Below, piece by piece: positions 1,851 to 53,160 of a stretch of DNA of 64,000 nucleotides. Positions within the stretch are counted from its first letter, which is position 1; the number at the start of each line of letters is the position of its first letter. The position numbers and the translations under genes were made by a program. The notes beneath the pieces are model-generated. The model worked only from the letters and a program-made list of their open reading frames with translations, was not told where the DNA came from and searched no databases. Origin of the DNA: Candidatus Lustribacter sp. Its GTDB lineage: Bacteria > Vulcanimicrobiota > Vulcanimicrobiia > Vulcanimicrobiales > Vulcanimicrobiaceae. The DNA lies in NCBI GenBank assembly GCA_965277805.1, contig OZ255842.1:3584001-3648000 (forward strand), in the 5' to 3' direction.

Positions 1851-1878
1851 GCGGTCCCTCGACAAGCTTGGGATGACA
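1851..1878 (+). repeat. REP-like dispersed repeat, copy 1
   Basis: GCGGTCCCTCGACAAGCTTGGGATGACA; one mismatch to the copy at 6950. Confidence 0.9.
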
Positions 1879-6949: not shown

Positions 6950-6980
6950 GTGGCGGTCCCTCGACAAGCTCGGGATGACA
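6950..6980 (+). repeat. REP-like dispersed repeat, copy 2 (consensus form)
   Basis: GTGGCGGTCCCTCGACAAGCTCGGGATGACA, beginning immediately after the tctC stop. Confidence 0.92.
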
Positions 6981-25170: not shown

Positions 25171-25227
25171 GCCGCAACTCTAGCCCCGCACCATGAACGA
25201 ATTGTTGCGCAACCATGAGCGCGGATT

Positions 25228-25249
25228 GTGGCGGTCGAGGGACCGCCAC
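25228..25249. repeat. Perfect hairpin formed from two head-to-head ends of the REP-like repeat
   Basis: GTGGCGGTC-GAGG-GACCGCCAC. Confidence 0.8.
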
Positions 25250-27420: not shown

Positions 27421-27451
27421 GTGGCGGCCCCTCGACAAGCTCGGGGTGACA
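27421..27451 (+). repeat. REP-like dispersed repeat copy
   Basis: GTGGCGGCCCCTCGACAAGCTCGGGGTGACA (2 mismatches to consensus). Confidence 0.9.
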
Positions 27452-28745: not shown

Positions 28746-28776
28746 GTGGCTGCCCCCCGACAAGCTCGGGGTGGCA
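28746..28776 (+). repeat. REP-like dispersed repeat, degenerate copy
   Basis: GTGGCTGCCCCCCGACAAGCTCGGGGTGGCA, just downstream of the lysS stop. Confidence 0.8.
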
Positions 28777-32176: not shown

Positions 32177-33601
32177 CTACGTTTCGCGCAGGCGCGAGTG
32201 ACGGTAACCGTAGGCCGCGTACACGCCGACGCCGACGAGAAACCACACGACGAAGCGGATCCAAGTCAGCGTGCCGAGACCCGTCATCACGAGCAGGCAC
32301 AGGATCGCGCCGAGCGCCGCGGTGACGAGTCCGAAGGGCGCGCGAAAGGGCCGCACCGCGTCCGGTTTGCGCAAGCGCAGCACGAACACGCCGATGCACA
32401 CGATCGTGAACGCGGAGAGCGTGCCGACGTTGACCAGCGCCAGCAATTCCGCAATCGGCAGGATGCCGGCGAGGATCGCGACCAGCACGCCGGTCGTCAT
32501 CGTCGTGATGATCGGCGTGCACGTGCGCGCGTCGACGCGGGCGACGATCGGCGGCAGCATGCGATCGCGCGCCATCACGAAGAAGATCCGGATCTGTCCG
32601 AGCAGCGAGGTGAGCATCACGGTCGTCGTGCCGGCGAAGGCGCCCGCGAACACGACCGCATTCAGCCAACTCGCGTTGCCCGCATGATGCACGGCGTCGG
32701 CCATCGCGGCGTTCGGGTCGACGGTTTTCCACGGCACGATGCCGACCGTGACGTAGGCCGCGAGCATATAGATCACGATGCCGATGATCAGCGACCAGAT
32801 CACGGCCCGCGGCACGTCGCGCACGGGGTTCTTCGCCTCTTCCGATGCGACCGTCACCGTGTCGAAGCCGATGTAGGCGAAAAACACGAGCGCGGCGCCG
32901 GCGATAATCCCGCTGCCGCCGAGCGGAAACGGCGGCATGAAATGCGCCGGCGAGACCGCCCCGAAGAGCGCCAGCACGAACACGATCAGCGCGATGATCT
33001 GAATGCCGACGAAGAGCGTGTTGGTGCGCGTCGATTCGCGAATCCCGATCGCGAGCAGCGCCGAAATACCGAGCACGGCGAGAATCGCCAGCAGATCGAT
33101 CGACGAGTGCGCGAAGTCGATTCCACCCGGCGCGAATACGACGTGCGCGACTTGCAGCGCGGGCGGCAGCGTGATGTGAAACCCGGTGAGGAAACTTTGC
33201 ACCGAGCCCGACCAGGCGGCGGCAGTCGGCGCAACGCTGATGCCGTACTCGAGGATCAAATCCCAGCCGATGATCCAAGCGACGAATTCACCGAGCGTAG
33301 CGTAGGCGTAGGTGTAGGCGCTGCCCGCGATCGGGACCATCGCTGCGAGTTCCGCATAGCACAGCGCGACGAAGATGCAGGCGACGCCGGTGAGTGCGAA
33401 TGACGCCAGCACGCCGCCGGCACCGGCCGCCTGCGCGCCGGAACCGATCGTCGTGAAGATGCCGCCGAGCATCGTGCCGAGGCCGACGCCGATCAGCCCC
33501 GCCACGCCGAGCGCGCGGCGCAGCGGAACGCCGCCTTCGCCGCCGGAGGGCGAGATGCGATCGTACGGCTGCGTCGCGGCGAGCCGCTGCCATACGTTCA
33601 C
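32177..33601 (-). CDS. APC-family (cationic amino acid type) permease
   Basis: GTMLGGIF, LCYAELAAMVPIAGSAYTYAY, FFAYIGFDTV, EEAKNP, MARDRMLP. Confidence 0.93.
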   Translation of the reverse strand: MNVWQRLAATQPYDRISPSGGEGGVPLRRALGVAGLIGVGLGTMLGGIFTTIGSGAQAAGAGGVLASFALTGVACIFVALCYAELAAMVPIAGSAYTYAYATLGEFVAWIIGWDLILEYGISVAPTAAAWSGSVQSFLTGFHITLPPALQVAHVVFAPGGIDFAHSSIDLLAILAVLGISALLAIGIRESTRTNTLFVGIQIIALIVFVLALFGAVSPAHFMPPFPLGGSGIIAGAALVFFAYIGFDTVTVASEEAKNPVRDVPRAVIWSLIIGIVIYMLAAYVTVGIVPWKTVDPNAAMADAVHHAGNASWLNAVVFAGAFAGTTTVMLTSLLGQIRIFFVMARDRMLPPIVARVDARTCTPIITTMTTGVLVAILAGILPIAELLALVNVGTLSAFTIVCIGVFVLRLRKPDAVRPFRAPFGLVTAALGAILCLLVMTGLGTLTWIRFVVWFLVGVGVYAAYGYRHSRLRET

Positions 33602-34509
33602 GAAGCGGCGAGGTTCACGACGCGCGGGCGCAGCTTCAACTCGATCAGCACGCGTTCGTAGTCGGCCGCCGTGACTTCAGCCCACGTTTTTCCGAGCAGC
33701 GCGAGCAGTGCCGCCTCGACGACGTTCGTGCCGAACGAGCGGCCGTCGAAATCGGGCGTCGTCGTGACCAGCATCGCGACGCCGCGCGTGCGCAGCTCTT
33801 CGACGTCGTTGGCGGTGAGGGTATTGGTCAGCACCATCTTGCCGTCGAGCCGGTCTGGCATGTACTGCCGCATGAAGTGGAAGTCGCCGGCGATGATATC
33901 GGCGTCGTCGTAGTATTCGGGATACTTGGGCTCGGGCTTGCGGTCTTGCTTCTTGCCGGTGGGATAGAAGAACTGAAACGGCAGCTTGCAGGCATCGGGC
34001 AGATACTTGCGCGCCATCTCTTCAAATTCATCGAGGCCGCGCACCGGCCGGTCGAGATCGAGCGCGAAGATGAAATCTCCGAAGATCATGTCGGCCCCGG
34101 CCGCCACCAAGGCCTGCGCCATTCCGAACCGGTCGAGCGCGCTGACCATCAGCACGCGCTTCCCGCCGAGCTCCATCCCGAGTTCACGCTGCAGATACTC
34201 CACCGCTTCGCGCTCGAGCGTATTCTTGAGCCCGCTACCGTCGACCACCGGCGTCTTCTTCACCGCATTCAACAGCCGCAGCCCGTCTTTCAACGCGAAC
34301 CGCTGCGTGCCGGCATACAAATACACATCGATCCCGCCGAGCCCGATCGCATCGACCGTCCCATCCAACTCGCGCAACCGCTTGAGCGCGCGATCGATGC
34401 TCCCGTCCATCCCCTCCCGAGAAATAGCAAACTGCTCCCCCAACAACTCCACCATCGCCCGATGATCCCGCGACGAAGACCCGAGACTAACCGAAACAAT
34501 CGTCTTCAT
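33598..34509 (-). CDS. Conserved protein of unknown function (family often auto-labelled 'quinate 5-dehydrogenase')
   Basis: MKTIVSVSLGSSSRDH, LDGTVDAIGLGGID, PVVDGSGLKNTLE, GRSFGTNVVEA. The family label is recalled, not searched. Confidence 0.65.
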   Translation of the reverse strand: MKTIVSVSLGSSSRDHRAMVELLGEQFAISREGMDGSIDRALKRLRELDGTVDAIGLGGIDVYLYAGTQRFALKDGLRLLNAVKKTPVVDGSGLKNTLEREAVEYLQRELGMELGGKRVLMVSALDRFGMAQALVAAGADMIFGDFIFALDLDRPVRGLDEFEEMARKYLPDACKLPFQFFYPTGKKQDRKPEPKYPEYYDDADIIAGDFHFMRQYMPDRLDGKMVLTNTLTANDVEELRTRGVAMLVTTTPDFDGRSFGTNVVEAALLALLGKTWAEVTAADYERVLIELKLRPRVVNLAAS

Positions 34510-34513
34510 TCCA

Positions 34514-34544
34514 TGTCATCCCGAGCTTGTCGAGGGACCGCCAC
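34514..34544 (-). repeat. REP-like dispersed repeat, exact reverse-complement copy
   Basis: TGTCATCCCGAGCTTGTCGAGGGACCGCCAC fills most of a 40-bp intergenic gap. Confidence 0.93.
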
Positions 34545-34549
34545 AATCT

Positions 34550-35659
34550 TCATCGTGTTGCCGCTTTTCGGGCGTCGGCGGCGGCGCGGGTGGCGGCGAT
34601 GCTTTCGGGGGAGATGACTTTGTCGAAGGCTCGCATGTCGGCGAGTTCGAAGCCGGCGCGGGCGGCGAGGGTATCGATTTCGCGGACTTTTTCGAGATTG
34701 ACGCCGCGTCCGACGGTGTAGGATTCGCAGCGGTTTTCGAGTGCGAGAACCATCGTTTCCGACATGCATGCAAGCGCGGTACCGGGTGATAGCGCGAGGT
34801 CGAAGTCGGTGCCGGGTTCGCGCACGCGTTCGGCCCGGAACGAACCCGGGACGCGCATGTTGCCGCCTTCGACGACCAGCACGTCGGGCCGCTCGAGTGC
34901 AACGCGGCGGCTCACATCGTGTGGCAGCGAAACCTCGCACACGACCGCGCCCGGGCGCAAATTCTCAGGCTCAATCACGTCCTGCGTAGACGATGTCGCG
35001 GTCAAGATGAGGTCTGATTCGCGCAACGCGGCGGCAAGATCGACCGTGTAGCGTAATTCGCACTTCACCCGCGGCTGCAAATCGGCCACGAGTGCCTTCA
35101 ATCGCGTCTCGTTTCGGGCGACACAAATCACCGTGTGGACGCGGTCCCCGATCAATTGCACGCAGGCCGCGCCGATCGACCCGGTCGCTCCCACTACAAC
35201 GGCCGTCGACGTTGCAACATCGATGCCCATCTCATCGGCGCCACGAAAGAGCCCGCGCACGGCCGCCGCGATCGTCAGCGAATTCCCGGTCGTCACCGGA
35301 ATCGGCGAACGTTCGGCAATCGTCACGCCGCCGTCACCGACGACGCCGGTAAAGGCACCGAGGCCGGCCACCTTCGCGCCAAGCGATACGCCCACGTCGA
35401 TCGCCGCGAGTATCCGCGCATACACATCATCGCGCGGAAACGCGAGCATCTGCTCCGGGAGCAAGGGCGCGGCAACGAACCAGCCTTCGGTTTCGCGCCC
35501 ATCCGGGGTTCGTATCCCGGTGAGGTGAGCCGCCGCATAGGCCGGCATCCACTCCAGGATCTTGGCCACGATCGGCTTCCCCTTGCCGGCCGCGCCCGGC
35601 TCGTAGCGGATCACGTCCTCGAACGACAGGGGATGGATAACGAAACAGAACGGGACCAT
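34550..35659 (-). CDS. Acyl-ACP-reductase-like NAD(P)-dependent oxidoreductase
   Basis: FCFVIHPL, GLGAFTGVV, TTGNSLT, VVGATGSIG (Rossmann), ACMSETMVLALE (Cys at the position of the AAR catalytic Cys motif). Confidence 0.75.
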   Translation of the reverse strand: MVPFCFVIHPLSFEDVIRYEPGAAGKGKPIVAKILEWMPAYAAAHLTGIRTPDGRETEGWFVAAPLLPEQMLAFPRDDVYARILAAIDVGVSLGAKVAGLGAFTGVVGDGGVTIAERSPIPVTTGNSLTIAAAVRGLFRGADEMGIDVATSTAVVVGATGSIGAACVQLIGDRVHTVICVARNETRLKALVADLQPRVKCELRYTVDLAAALRESDLILTATSSTQDVIEPENLRPGAVVCEVSLPHDVSRRVALERPDVLVVEGGNMRVPGSFRAERVREPGTDFDLALSPGTALACMSETMVLALENRCESYTVGRGVNLEKVREIDTLAARAGFELADMRAFDKVISPESIAATRAAADARKAATR

Positions 35660-38448: not shown

Positions 38449-39090
38449 GTGAGCGATTCGCCGAATCCGCCGACCCTGCTGAGCCTCATCGTGGCGTTCG
38501 CGAACATCGGACTCACCAGCGTCGGCGGCGCCGGCGGCCCCCTGCGCTACGTCGTCGTCAAGCAGCGCCGCTGGCTCTCCGAAGGCGCGCTGGCCGAACT
38601 TTTCGGCGTCGCGCAGGCACTGCCGGGCGCGACGGCCGTCAACATCGCGGTGATGTTCAGCGACCGTGCAGTGGGCCCGCTCGGTCCGCTCGCAGCGCTC
38701 TTCGGCCTGATCGTTCCCTCGCTGATCATCGCGATCGCCCTGGCCGGCATTGCCACGCAACTCGCGGCGGTCAACTACCGTTTCGCGGCAGCCGAAGTCG
38801 GCGTGACCGCGGCCGTCGCCGGCATCTTTATCTCCAACGGCTTCCGCGTCATGGGTCAGCTGTGGAGCGAAACGCCCGACCTCCAGCTCGTGTGGCGTAG
38901 CTCCCGCGTCGCGATCAGCGCGCTCGGCATCGTCATGGTCGCCGGTTTCCACATCTTCATCCCGTTGACGATGGTGGTACTCGTAACGCTCAGCCTGCTG
39001 CTGGAATGGCGCATCCCCCGTAATCCCGAGCTTGTCGAGGGACCGCCACCCGTCGACCCCATCGACCCGATCGACGAGAAGCAGTCATGA
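38449..39090 (+). CDS. Short-chain chromate transporter (ChrA family), subunit 1
   Basis: GTG at 38449; IGLTSVGG, WLSE, AQALPGA. Confidence 0.85.
   Translation: MSDSPNPPTLLSLIVAFANIGLTSVGGAGGPLRYVVVKQRRWLSEGALAELFGVAQALPGATAVNIAVMFSDRAVGPLGPLAALFGLIVPSLIIAIALAGIATQLAAVNYRFAAAEVGVTAAVAGIFISNGFRVMGQLWSETPDLQLVWRSSRVAISALGIVMVAGFHIFIPLTMVVLVTLSLLLEWRIPRNPELVEGPPPVDPIDPIDEKQS
39019..39049 (-). repeat. REP-like repeat copy inside the chrA-1 reading frame
   Basis: CGTAATCCCGAGCTTGTCGAGGGACCGCCAC, translated as RNPELVEGPP. Confidence 0.88.
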
Positions 39091-40131: not shown

Positions 40132-40177
40132 TGTCATTCCGAGCAGCGCCGTAGGCGCGTCGACGAGGAACGCGCCA
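40132..40177 (-). repeat. Related REP-like element (TGTCATTCCGAGC subfamily)
   Basis: TGTCATTCCGAGCAGCGCCGTAGGCGCGTCGACGAGGAACGCGCCAC shares both ends with the 31-bp repeat. Confidence 0.65.
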
Positions 40178-40254
40178 CGATCTATAATCTCGAGTGCGAT
40201 GCGCGAAGGCGCGAGCAGTGGACAACTCTTCTGTTTTTTTACTCCACTGCTAAA

Positions 40255-50608: not shown

Positions 50609-50640
50609 AAAGGAGCCGTATCAAGCACGGCTCCTTTTTC
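50609..50640 (+). terminator. Intrinsic terminator
   Basis: AAAGGAGCCGT-ATCAAGC-ACGGCTCCTTTTT. Confidence 0.85.
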
Positions 50641-50659
50641 TATTCGGTCGGCACTAAAA

Positions 50660-50698
50660 GGGCAACGTGCTCGGCACGGCGCTCCGCTCGGAATGACA
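50660..50698 (+). repeat. Related REP-like element (subfamily of the 40132 copy)
   Basis: Reverse complement is TGTCATTCCGAGCGGAGCGCCGTGCCGAGCACGTTGCCC. Confidence 0.6.
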
Positions 50699-53109: not shown

Positions 53110-53160
53110 TGTCATCCCGAGCTCGTCGCTGTCATTCCGAGCTGGTCGAGGGACCGCCAC
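53110..53160 (-). repeat. Tandem partial plus full REP-like repeat
   Basis: TGTCATCCCGAGCTCGTCGC followed directly by TGTCATTCCGAGCTGGTCGAGGGACCGCCAC. Confidence 0.88.

Follow-up and report, generated by a model that had tools for sequence, protein, structure and literature searches.

The window examined here is a stretch of 64,000 nt from the soil bacterium Candidatus Lustribacter sp. (GenBank assembly GCA_965277805.1, contig OZ255842.1, positions 3,584,001 to 3,648,000), and the feature under study is a short repetitive extragenic palindrome (REP)-like element at 34514..34548 on the plus strand, together with the base composition of the coding sequence around it. The element lies between two genes of the minus strand. 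The gene on its left, 33598..34509 (-), encodes 303 aa, has its start codon 5 nt from the element, and has 57 relatives confirmed by tblastn; a Pfam search of its protein returned no family. The gene on its right, 34550..35659 (-), has its stop codon just beyond the element and encodes a 369-aa NAD(P)-binding dehydrogenase-like protein (Pfam Shikimate_DH, E = 1e-9, and other Rossmann-type matches). The element is a short form with an exact core match, and it consists of 5' box TGTCATCCCGAGC, loop TTGT, 3' box CGAGGGACC, and tail GCCACAAT. Both flanks have a biased composition, here called a halo. On the plus strand, the left flank is C/A-rich over 34080..34513, in the 5' part of the left gene, and the right flank is G/T-rich over 34553..34860, in the 3' end of the right gene, whose coding strand is accordingly C/A-rich. 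Between 34080 and 34559, each 120-nt window has a GC skew of -0.22 to -0.38, and the skew is +0.11 to +0.30 over 34560-34859.

An earlier note, made from the letters of the window, had described this flip and counted bases by hand, and a script reproduced its counts letter for letter. On the plus strand, 34381-34500 contains C48 A33 G22 T17 (GC skew -0.371, AT skew +0.32), and 34561-34680 contains G53 C29 T25 A13 (GC skew +0.293, AT skew -0.316). We express the flip as D, the GC skew of the right flank minus that of the left flank, using 120-nt flanks around a 60-nt gap. D is 0.664 at 34514, and its standard deviation (sd) over the 5.53-Mb genome is 0.128. Values of at least 0.664 occur at 0.0136% of genome positions, and a GC and AT flip of this size occurs jointly at 0.0018%. 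The G/T-ending codons described at the start of the left gene are present in 33598-34509 (-), and both flanks are minus-strand coding sequence (CDS) as the note said, but coding direction does have a bearing: the halo is about 2.5 times stronger with a gene reading into the element than with one reading away. Four other sites had been listed by eye. D is positive at all of them (+0.19 at 25228, +0.32 at 40132, +0.25 at 50660, and +0.28 at 53110), but it comes almost entirely from a C/A-rich left flank (GC skew -0.21 to -0.27), and the right flanks are near zero (-0.08 to +0.08). The view that the pattern ignores the orientation of the repeat had to be given up; the pattern is one-sided and tracks the orientation of the element, and the two-sided flip at 34514 is the exception.

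Sharp flips were also surveyed across the genome. Positions with |D| of at least 0.664 are almost all positive (C-rich left, G-rich right; 0.01359% against 0.01366% of positions). Lowering the cut-off to 0.45 gives 223 positive and 149 negative clusters, of which only 17 and 7, respectively, are within 200 nt of a short-form core, so other sources of sharp flips exist.

The repeat is a REP-like hairpin with 5' box TGTCATYCCGAGC, and 245 non-tandem copies occur in the genome of the window (G000). Its conserved unit, T-GTCATCCCGAGC-TTGT-CGAGGGACC-GCCACAAT, is about 35 nt long, and information content is confined to these 35 nt or so. The tail GCCAC(A/G)AT is conserved 3' of the 3' box. A search with the 25-nt core found 139 copies at five or fewer mismatches, compared with a single match for ten shuffled cores together (about 0.1 expected), and the 5' box family has 124 exact and 107 one-mismatch copies, compared with 2 and 136 for ten shuffles. 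The tag is mostly TGTC in G000 (124 exact copies of TGTCATCCCGAGC), with CGTCATCCCGAGC found 15 times, and most of the G002 copies shown start with CGTC. In the long form, a GC-rich inner hairpin stands between the 5' and 3' boxes. Long forms are often paired in inverted orientation at a distance of 60-300 nt, the 5' boxes lying outermost and the inner modules being conserved. The outer stem has compensatory changes (T5-A23 and C-G, 93 vs. 22; C-G and T-A in long forms, 41 vs. 20), and the tandem G.A/A.G mismatches within the stem are invariant. G.T pairs outnumber A.C pairs in long-form stems on the element strand (23 vs. 8), which marks the element strand as the one that folds. An Rfam search gave no match at gathering score in the whole window and none at E of 1 or less in 34300-34700.

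Elements stand mostly 1-13 nt downstream of a stop codon and are found in 72 of 648 convergent, 77 of 3018 tandem, and 13 of 695 divergent gaps. The 5' box is found 184 times in G000 and 0-22 times in 40 other genomes of the class, a tally that includes the unpublished genomes G030 and G055, on which nothing rests. Genomes of the window's genus are 3.4-5.8 Mb and the 40 other class genomes 2.1-4.4 Mb; expansion of the repeat accompanies a large genome. Several features of organization were seen alongside. Long forms are usually trailed, 12-20 nt on, by a second module (containing GAGTGCGACCGCGAAGGCGGGAGCAGTGG) or a third (containing CAGGGCAAYKCC), as at 40179-40215 and across G000, and inverted long forms with inner modules delimit composite units 100-230 nt long. 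The bare 5' box also forms tandem arrays, at G000:C1:2165286-2165404 (5 boxes, 21-nt period) and at G013:C1:212411-212775 (10 boxes, spacing of about 28 nt). Between 2.0 and 2.5 Mb of G000:C1, there are 31 plus and 2 minus elements; orientations are balanced elsewhere. A replication-strand bias was rejected, given that plus and minus copy counts per 0.5 Mb do not track the gene-orientation switch, except for this 2.0-2.5 Mb cluster. T-runs were rejected as a target, with TTTTT found in the 15 nt before 7 of 245 boxes compared with 71 of 5178 stop-codon flanks.

The halo is C/A-rich and G/T-poor on the element strand, lies only upstream of the 5' box, and decays over about 300 nt. This one-sidedness is alike for plus copies (n = 81) and minus copies (n = 58), and the downstream flank is flat. 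At plus copies, upstream GC skew is -0.26, -0.20, -0.145, and -0.105 in successive 40-nt bins, and AT skew is about +0.15. The signal persists on averaging, with a mean D of +0.168 (sd 0.158) at the 139 short-form copies. Mean D on the plus strand is +0.176 and +0.157 for the two orientations, and it is positive in both because the halo is one-sided and bound to orientation. The earlier proposal that a strand running 5' to 3' away from the element is G/T-rich has the right sign on the halo side, but it holds only on the 5'-box side, and both sides are affected only at inverted pairs. Sixty-seven elements in 2.0 Mb of a second genome, G002, also have an upstream halo (GC skew -0.15 to -0.10 over 0-160 nt). 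We therefore regard the original observation as confirmed, real, and general, with its geometry corrected to a one-sided one tied to orientation. Halo strength and core mismatches are weakly related (Spearman 0.19, p = 0.09), and an effect of age on halo strength was rejected on this basis; copies with a perfect core have the strongest halos (-0.232 at 0 mismatches).

Gene ends provide the clearest view of the effect. Genes were called with a codon-usage scorer (5178 genes, 91.6% coding). Gene 3' ends that face a 5' box (n = 52) have a GC skew of -0.230 over their last 120 nt, and their third positions are C 0.60, G 0.20, T 0.04, and A 0.16. Element-free 3' ends (n = 4287) have a GC skew of -0.042 and third positions of C 0.45, G 0.34, T 0.10, and A 0.11 (Mann-Whitney p = 4e-21), so the skew is not one shared by all gene ends. 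No effect was seen at gene 3' ends facing the 3' side of an element (n = 49, p = 0.35) or at gene 5' ends facing that side (n = 24), and gene 5' ends facing a 5' box (n = 38) have a weaker shift with the same sign on the element strand (p = 0.005). Sorted by what lies upstream, the 245 elements comprise 161 with a co-oriented gene, 53 with an anti-oriented gene, 21 with mixed context, and 10 with non-coding DNA. Third positions of the co-oriented class have a GC skew of -0.65 at 40-80 nt, followed by -0.52, -0.42, -0.34, -0.28, -0.25, and -0.22 per 40-nt bin, and this skew nears the baseline of about -0.13 by about 450 nt; over all positions, the bases at 40-80 nt include C 0.41 and G 0.22. 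The shift from baseline in anti-oriented genes is about 40% of that in co-oriented genes, and GC skew in non-coding upstream DNA is only about -0.12 at 40-120 nt.

Gene orientation was controlled by comparing gaps of the same class with and without an element. D is +0.003 in ++ gaps without an element and +0.04 to +0.21 in those with one; the values are +0.011 and +0.12 to +0.19 in -- gaps, +0.116 and +0.33 to +0.53 in convergent (+-) gaps, and -0.030 and -0.13 to +0.24 in divergent (-+) gaps, where gaps with an element are few. Overall, element-free gaps have D of -0.03 to +0.12, compared with +0.12 to +0.53 with elements. The highest value, +0.529, belongs to convergent gaps that hold both orientations (n = 15). 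The class of 34514 itself (-- gaps with a plus copy, n = 19) has a mean D of only +0.123.

Relatives at the locus suggest why 34514 differs from its class. The orthologous site in G002, G004, G006, G005, G011, and G016 has no element, and the two genes abut. A closely related genome, G003 (92-95% identical to G000), has an inverted pair of long forms at this site, and G001 has another pair. The halo is missing at the locus in the six element-less relatives. On the left flank, taken at 10-130 nt from the box, G000 and G003 have (G+T-A-C)/length values of -0.35 and -0.32, compared with -0.07 to -0.17 in four element-less relatives. The right flank, read on the minus strand, is -0.32 in G000 and -0.33 in G003, and -0.02 to -0.18 in the same comparison. 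C-terminal GC skew is -0.31, -0.33, and -0.20 in three carriers and -0.17 to +0.14 in about 40 scored non-carriers, some of whose windows are off by a few bases. The halo is weaker in the more distant carrier G001 (+0.16/-0.20 vs. +0.40/-0.31). G000 and G003 have derived changes in common, G>C/A on the left flank and C>G/T on the right one. Since G003 keeps the inverted pair and shares these derived changes, the right-hand halo is read as that of a lost partner; the flip at 34514 is probably two halos back to back, the right one left by an inverted partner that was lost in G000 and kept in its closest relative. Where relatives have no element, the upstream stop codon touches or overlaps the start of the next gene, which several of these relatives begin with GTG; in G000, the element parts the two genes, and the start codon is ATG. 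This abutment suggests that the insertion split a pair that was probably translationally coupled.

Whether the halo follows the element can be asked of orthologues. Gene tails of G000 were compared by tblastn with 2.0 Mb of G002, and (G+T-A-C)/length was taken over the last 120 nt of each gene. None of 27 clear cases has an element in both genomes. Where only G000 has the element (n = 17), its tails average -0.275 and those of the partner -0.105 (paired p = 0.0006); where only G002 has it (n = 10), the values are -0.212 and -0.088 (paired p = 0.008). Genes with an element in neither genome (n = 718) average -0.040 in G000 and -0.034 in G002. Tail composition is moderately conserved between the two genomes (r = 0.655), and the observed partner value of -0.096 compares with -0.130 expected from matched controls (p = 0.24) and with -0.177 from a linear prediction (p = 0.0003). 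Regression to the mean of this size leaves the order of events undecided by orthologue comparison alone, and we relied instead on the partition by codon position. For tails at or below -0.2, the third-position value is -0.674 with an element (n = 21) and -0.319 without one (n = 96; p = 7e-10), and the values at positions 1+2 are -0.142 and -0.193, respectively. Element-bearing tails are not a sample of natural extremes; their skew sits at silent sites. Between G000 and G003, 7 of 11 G000 elements over 374 kb are in both genomes, which leaves too few differences for timing.

The substitutions in these tails indicate what is favored. In the last 40 codons of the 27 informative pairs, changes towards the element genome outnumber the reverse for G>C (68 vs. 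27), G>A (64 vs. 16), T>C (50 vs. 20), and C>A (28 vs. 10), and G and T exchange evenly (5 vs. 4). The odds against controls are 2.5, 3.6, 2.7, 2.5, and 1.1, respectively. Transversions and transitions are favored alike, as would be expected if selection of the resulting base, and not the mutational path, were decisive, and the C>A excess implies an extra pull towards A. Within 1-40 nt of the box, G+T is 0.442 (0.403-0.477) in spacers, with a baseline of 0.50, and 0.244 (0.217-0.274) at third positions, with a baseline of about 0.45; over all positions, coding and non-coding flanks are alike in composition. Because spacers nearest the element are less skewed than silent sites, a regional composition target, which third positions would have to reach in place of the constrained positions, fits better than a mutation pressure that decays with distance and should be strongest at the closest neutral sites. 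The RNA of the halo is predicted to fold less stably than that of control tails (-33.7 vs. -42.9 kcal/mol per 120 nt, p = 1e-8). The genome also has a rho gene (open frame of 464 aa, Rho_RNA_bind match of 115.7 bits).

The reading we favor, with a probability of roughly 0.45, is that the halo reflects selection for an unstructured RNA tract of the Rho-loading type ahead of the element. We infer all three of its parts, namely selection as the agent, RNA as the level at which it acts, and Rho as the reader. Where a sense element stands behind a gene, the last 100-300 nt or so are C/A-rich and G/U-poor, almost wholly through silent third positions. A and C cannot pair with each other, and the transcript directly ahead of the element would thus be unstructured, C-rich, and G-poor. 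Selection on the RNA may keep this tract, and its most likely role would be that of a Rho loading zone resembling a Rho utilization (rut) site, at which transcription reading into a sense element would be ended by Rho. Weaker halos would be expected where only weak antisense or intergenic read-in occurs. Either the tract may form once an element is in place, or copies may persist only at sites that allow such a tract.

Several results weigh against a selected, Rho-read tract. In tandem gaps, elements are oriented without regard to transcription (36 co-oriented and 34 anti-oriented), and orientation itself is not selected, which suggests that the element behaves as a selfish insert and that the halo looks like a host response or a condition of survival. 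Some copies have no halo, including those at 1853, 6955, and 39020. The weaker halo also occurs in anti-oriented genes and non-coding DNA, including the left flank of 34514, which has no known mRNA read-in, and the tract lies in translated sequence, where ribosomes would compete with Rho. The depletion of U and enrichment of A are not stated as requirements of Rho sites in the available text of our sources, and in Escherichia coli the C>G zone is described downstream of REPs and not upstream (available part of PMC6061677). The weak halo in element-less orthologues cannot be separated from regression to the mean in the matched controls above. The short hairpin has little thermodynamic stability (-5.6 kcal/mol; z = +0.73 relative to shuffles), and a strong pause hairpin was rejected because the short form folds no better than the shuffles do. 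Behind its native upstream sequence, the outer stem is predicted to form with a probability of 0.081, no higher than the 0.087 behind control tails, and these values, from a model that handles G.A pairs poorly, give no support to the idea that the halo insulates the hairpin and keeps it free to fold.

The earlier note had suggested that the skew may be a mutational footprint; in a corrected form of this idea, the 5'-box end would be nicked or stall RNA polymerase, and repeated outward repair synthesis would be biased to G/T. The skew is real, anchored on the repeat, and decaying with distance; nicking, strand displacement, and repair synthesis fit it poorly, and we consider a mutational origin unlikely, although it has points in its favor. 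The halo is anchored at a single end of the element, its sign matches that of a nascent or leading strand, and inverted pairs produce flips on both sides that resemble an origin (the n = 15 gaps with D of +0.529); the halo at 34514 is derived in the carrier lineage and weaker in the distant carrier G001. Selection at the RNA level does not easily explain the weaker halo in anti-oriented genes (p = 0.005) and non-coding DNA. Mutation, for its part, would not be expected to leave the nearest spacers far less skewed than silent sites (G+T 0.442 vs. 0.244), make the effect about 2.5 times stronger under co-oriented read-in, or render G>C transversions as asymmetric as transitions. The strongest halos belong to copies with a perfect core, where it would place the weakest. 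Third-position divergence between G000 and G003 at 8 shared loci is at background in the halos (27/268 within 120 nt of the box vs. 139/1416 at 360-900 nt; Fisher p = 0.91), and there is no sign of ongoing hypermutation there, although with 8 loci power is low and a 1.5-fold rise is still possible. The more specific proposal that the 5' box is a hot spot of strand-specific DNA resynthesis, which would begin at a nick or polymerase stall and gradually rewrite silent sites over up to 300 nt, appears slightly more doubtful still.

Cause and effect could also be reversed, with C/A-rich gene ends coming first and elements landing or surviving behind them. Element-less orthologues keep about 30% of the halo (-0.105 vs. 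-0.034, p = 0.002), and matched element-free extremes regress almost as far. The sites at 27426, 28751, 34514, and 39020 hold different element forms in different genomes, and with no site of 27 common to G000 and G002, turnover is fast and sites may be reused. A preference at the DNA level cannot choose codon position, however, and element tails are skewed through silent sites (-0.674 vs. -0.319). The roughly 40 scored element-less relatives of 34514 have no C-terminal halo, the halo reaches beyond the natural autocorrelation of skew (r = 0.18 at a 120-nt lag), and element-free tails contain no separate population of strong halos (73 of 2025 at or below -0.217, about as mean and sd predict in a normal-tail estimate). 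Such an insertion or retention bias is therefore quite improbable. The idea that the halo is nothing but the usual base composition of gene termini, or a chance event at a single locus, deserves almost no credence. Gene 3' ends are slightly C/A-rich in general, as the values of -0.042 for element-free ends and +0.116 for element-free convergent gaps indicate, and several anti-oriented halos coincide with G/T-rich codons of signal peptides. The element-free controls already refute this explanation, both in the gap comparison and in the contrast of 3' ends facing a 5' box; in addition, variant boxes are enriched about 40-fold directly downstream of element-free 3' ends whose tails are strongly C/A-rich, and the upstream halo recurs at the 67 elements of G002.

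REP-like elements are known from other bacteria, and the present repeat is closest to the "CGTC-tagged" REPs (Di Nocera et al., 2013; PMC3733652). According to the available text of that paper, those elements share with it a short palindrome bearing a terminal unpaired tag and a short CCA-containing tail, frequent inverted dimers, location within about 20 bp of the 3' ends of open reading frames (mostly between convergent or unidirectional genes and rarely in divergent gaps), and the lack of a dedicated transposase. A profile search for Y1_Tnp (PF01797) gave no match in G000, which is 95% complete, and the control genomes responded. The repeat differs in that its tag is mostly TGTC, with CGTC a minority in G000, in its invariant tandem G.A/A.G mismatches, in its long form with a second inner hairpin, and in its host phylum, Eremiobacterota. 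A compositional halo in the flanks, as found here, is not mentioned for CGTC-tagged REPs in the available text of PMC3733652. A REPIN (REP doublet) of the GTAG-tagged type, driven by a REP-associated tyrosine transposase (RAYT), was rejected because the tag here is TGTC or CGTC and the genome has no Y1_Tnp domain. Miniature inverted-repeat transposable elements (MITEs) of DDE transposons are similar in their inverted pairs 60-300 nt apart, with 5' boxes ended by TG...CA outermost and conserved inner modules, but most copies here are single half-units. A DDE MITE was rejected, since no target-site duplication was found and 29 of 33 inverted pairs have no abutting direct repeat of at least 2 nt.

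In E. coli, REPs and bacterial interspersed mosaic elements (BIMEs) are extragenic hairpin repeats that follow genes and are tied to Rho-dependent 3' ends with C>G-rich sequence nearby (PMC6061677; bioRxiv 10.64898/2026.03.23.713779, available parts). E. coli REPs act as partial Rho-dependent terminators and stabilizers of mRNA 3' ends (bioRxiv 10.64898/2026.03.23.713779, available part), and Rho loading sites are described as C-rich and G-poor (PMC6061677, available part). The zone described here differs from that of E. coli REPs in lying upstream, inside coding sequence, in being depleted of U as well as G, and in being tied to one orientation of the element; recoding of REP flanks is not reported in the E. 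coli text available. The halo resembles a Rho-dependent terminator in that a C-rich, G-poor tract, predicted to be unstructured and at least about 80 nt long, lies ahead of the element in a genome with a rho gene. It differs from rut sites in reaching up to about 300 nt, in lying in translated sequence, and in being A-enriched and U-depleted. Compositional halos beside REPs or MITEs were not found in full-text searches of the literature, which give no proof of absence.

Replication and transcription leave strand asymmetries in bacterial genomes, with an excess of G+T on the leading or coding strand. The halo is likewise a skew of keto against amino bases, and at inverted pairs it has the sign of an origin. 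It differs in extending over hundreds of bases and not megabases, in being tied to the repeat, and in being opposite to the usual bias of the coding strand. It is also much stronger, with a third-position GC skew of -0.65 compared with about 0.01-0.03 per 100 kb genome-wide.

REP-like repeats are usually treated as passive intergenic passengers, and here the adjoining coding sequence bears a strong directional signature tied to the repeat, with G at third positions reduced from 0.34 to 0.14 and T from 0.10 to 0.04. A selected halo would mean that a small repeat is able to force the recoding of as many as 100 codons in a host gene, and it would offer a readable signature of Rho-type termination zones for an uncultured phylum of high GC content in which terminators are otherwise difficult to predict. 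A mutational halo would represent a new site-anchored, strand-specific mutation process. Should the box be a resynthesis hot spot, a selfish repeat would leave a miniature origin-like mutational shadow in host genes, which would serve as a clock of site occupancy and as a new source of local change in codon usage. Either way, the signature can distort analyses of codon usage, skew, and selection in genes adjoining repeats. Halo strength and side may also provide a computational handle on the age, orientation, and loss of copies, as with the relic halo at 34553-34860.

The window has other copies of the family, with and without halos; flank values below are (G+T-A-C)/length unless stated. Three short forms have little or no halo: 1853..1877 (-; 1 mismatch; +0.15), 6955..6979 (-; exact core; -0.05, weak or absent), and 39020..39044 (+; 1 mismatch; +0.10), the last at the end of a membrane-protein gene. 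At the last site (39012-39060), G003 retains only CGTCAT, G004 has a longer variant, and G002 and G006 have none, which looks like gain, replacement, and near-precise loss at one site without a halo. The short form at 27426..27450 (-; 2 mismatches) has a halo to its right in a gene 3' end (-0.22 in element orientation); its site holds a long form in G003, an opposite-orientation variant in G004, and no element in G006. A degenerate short form with 5 mismatches at 28751..28775 (-) has a weak halo to its right (flank GC skew -0.20 in element orientation), and its site holds a long form in G003 and none in G002, G004, or G006.

The long form at 40132..40178 (+), with its 5' box, GC-rich inner hairpin, and 3' box, has a halo to the left (GC skew -0.24). 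At 53110..53160 (+), a bare 5' box is followed by a short form with 2 mismatches, with a halo to the left; the box is present in G000, G003, and G004, and the flank is -0.27, -0.24, and -0.37, respectively. A fragment at 25227..25249 (+) comprises only the 3' box and tail and represents an insertion of about 40 nt relative to G002 and G003. The 5' box of a truncated long form lies at 50686..50698 (-), with a flank value of -0.12. It is adjoined on its left, at 50620-50650, by a GC-rich hairpin and T-run resembling an intrinsic terminator, and several other copies also stand directly behind hairpin-plus-T-run sequences.

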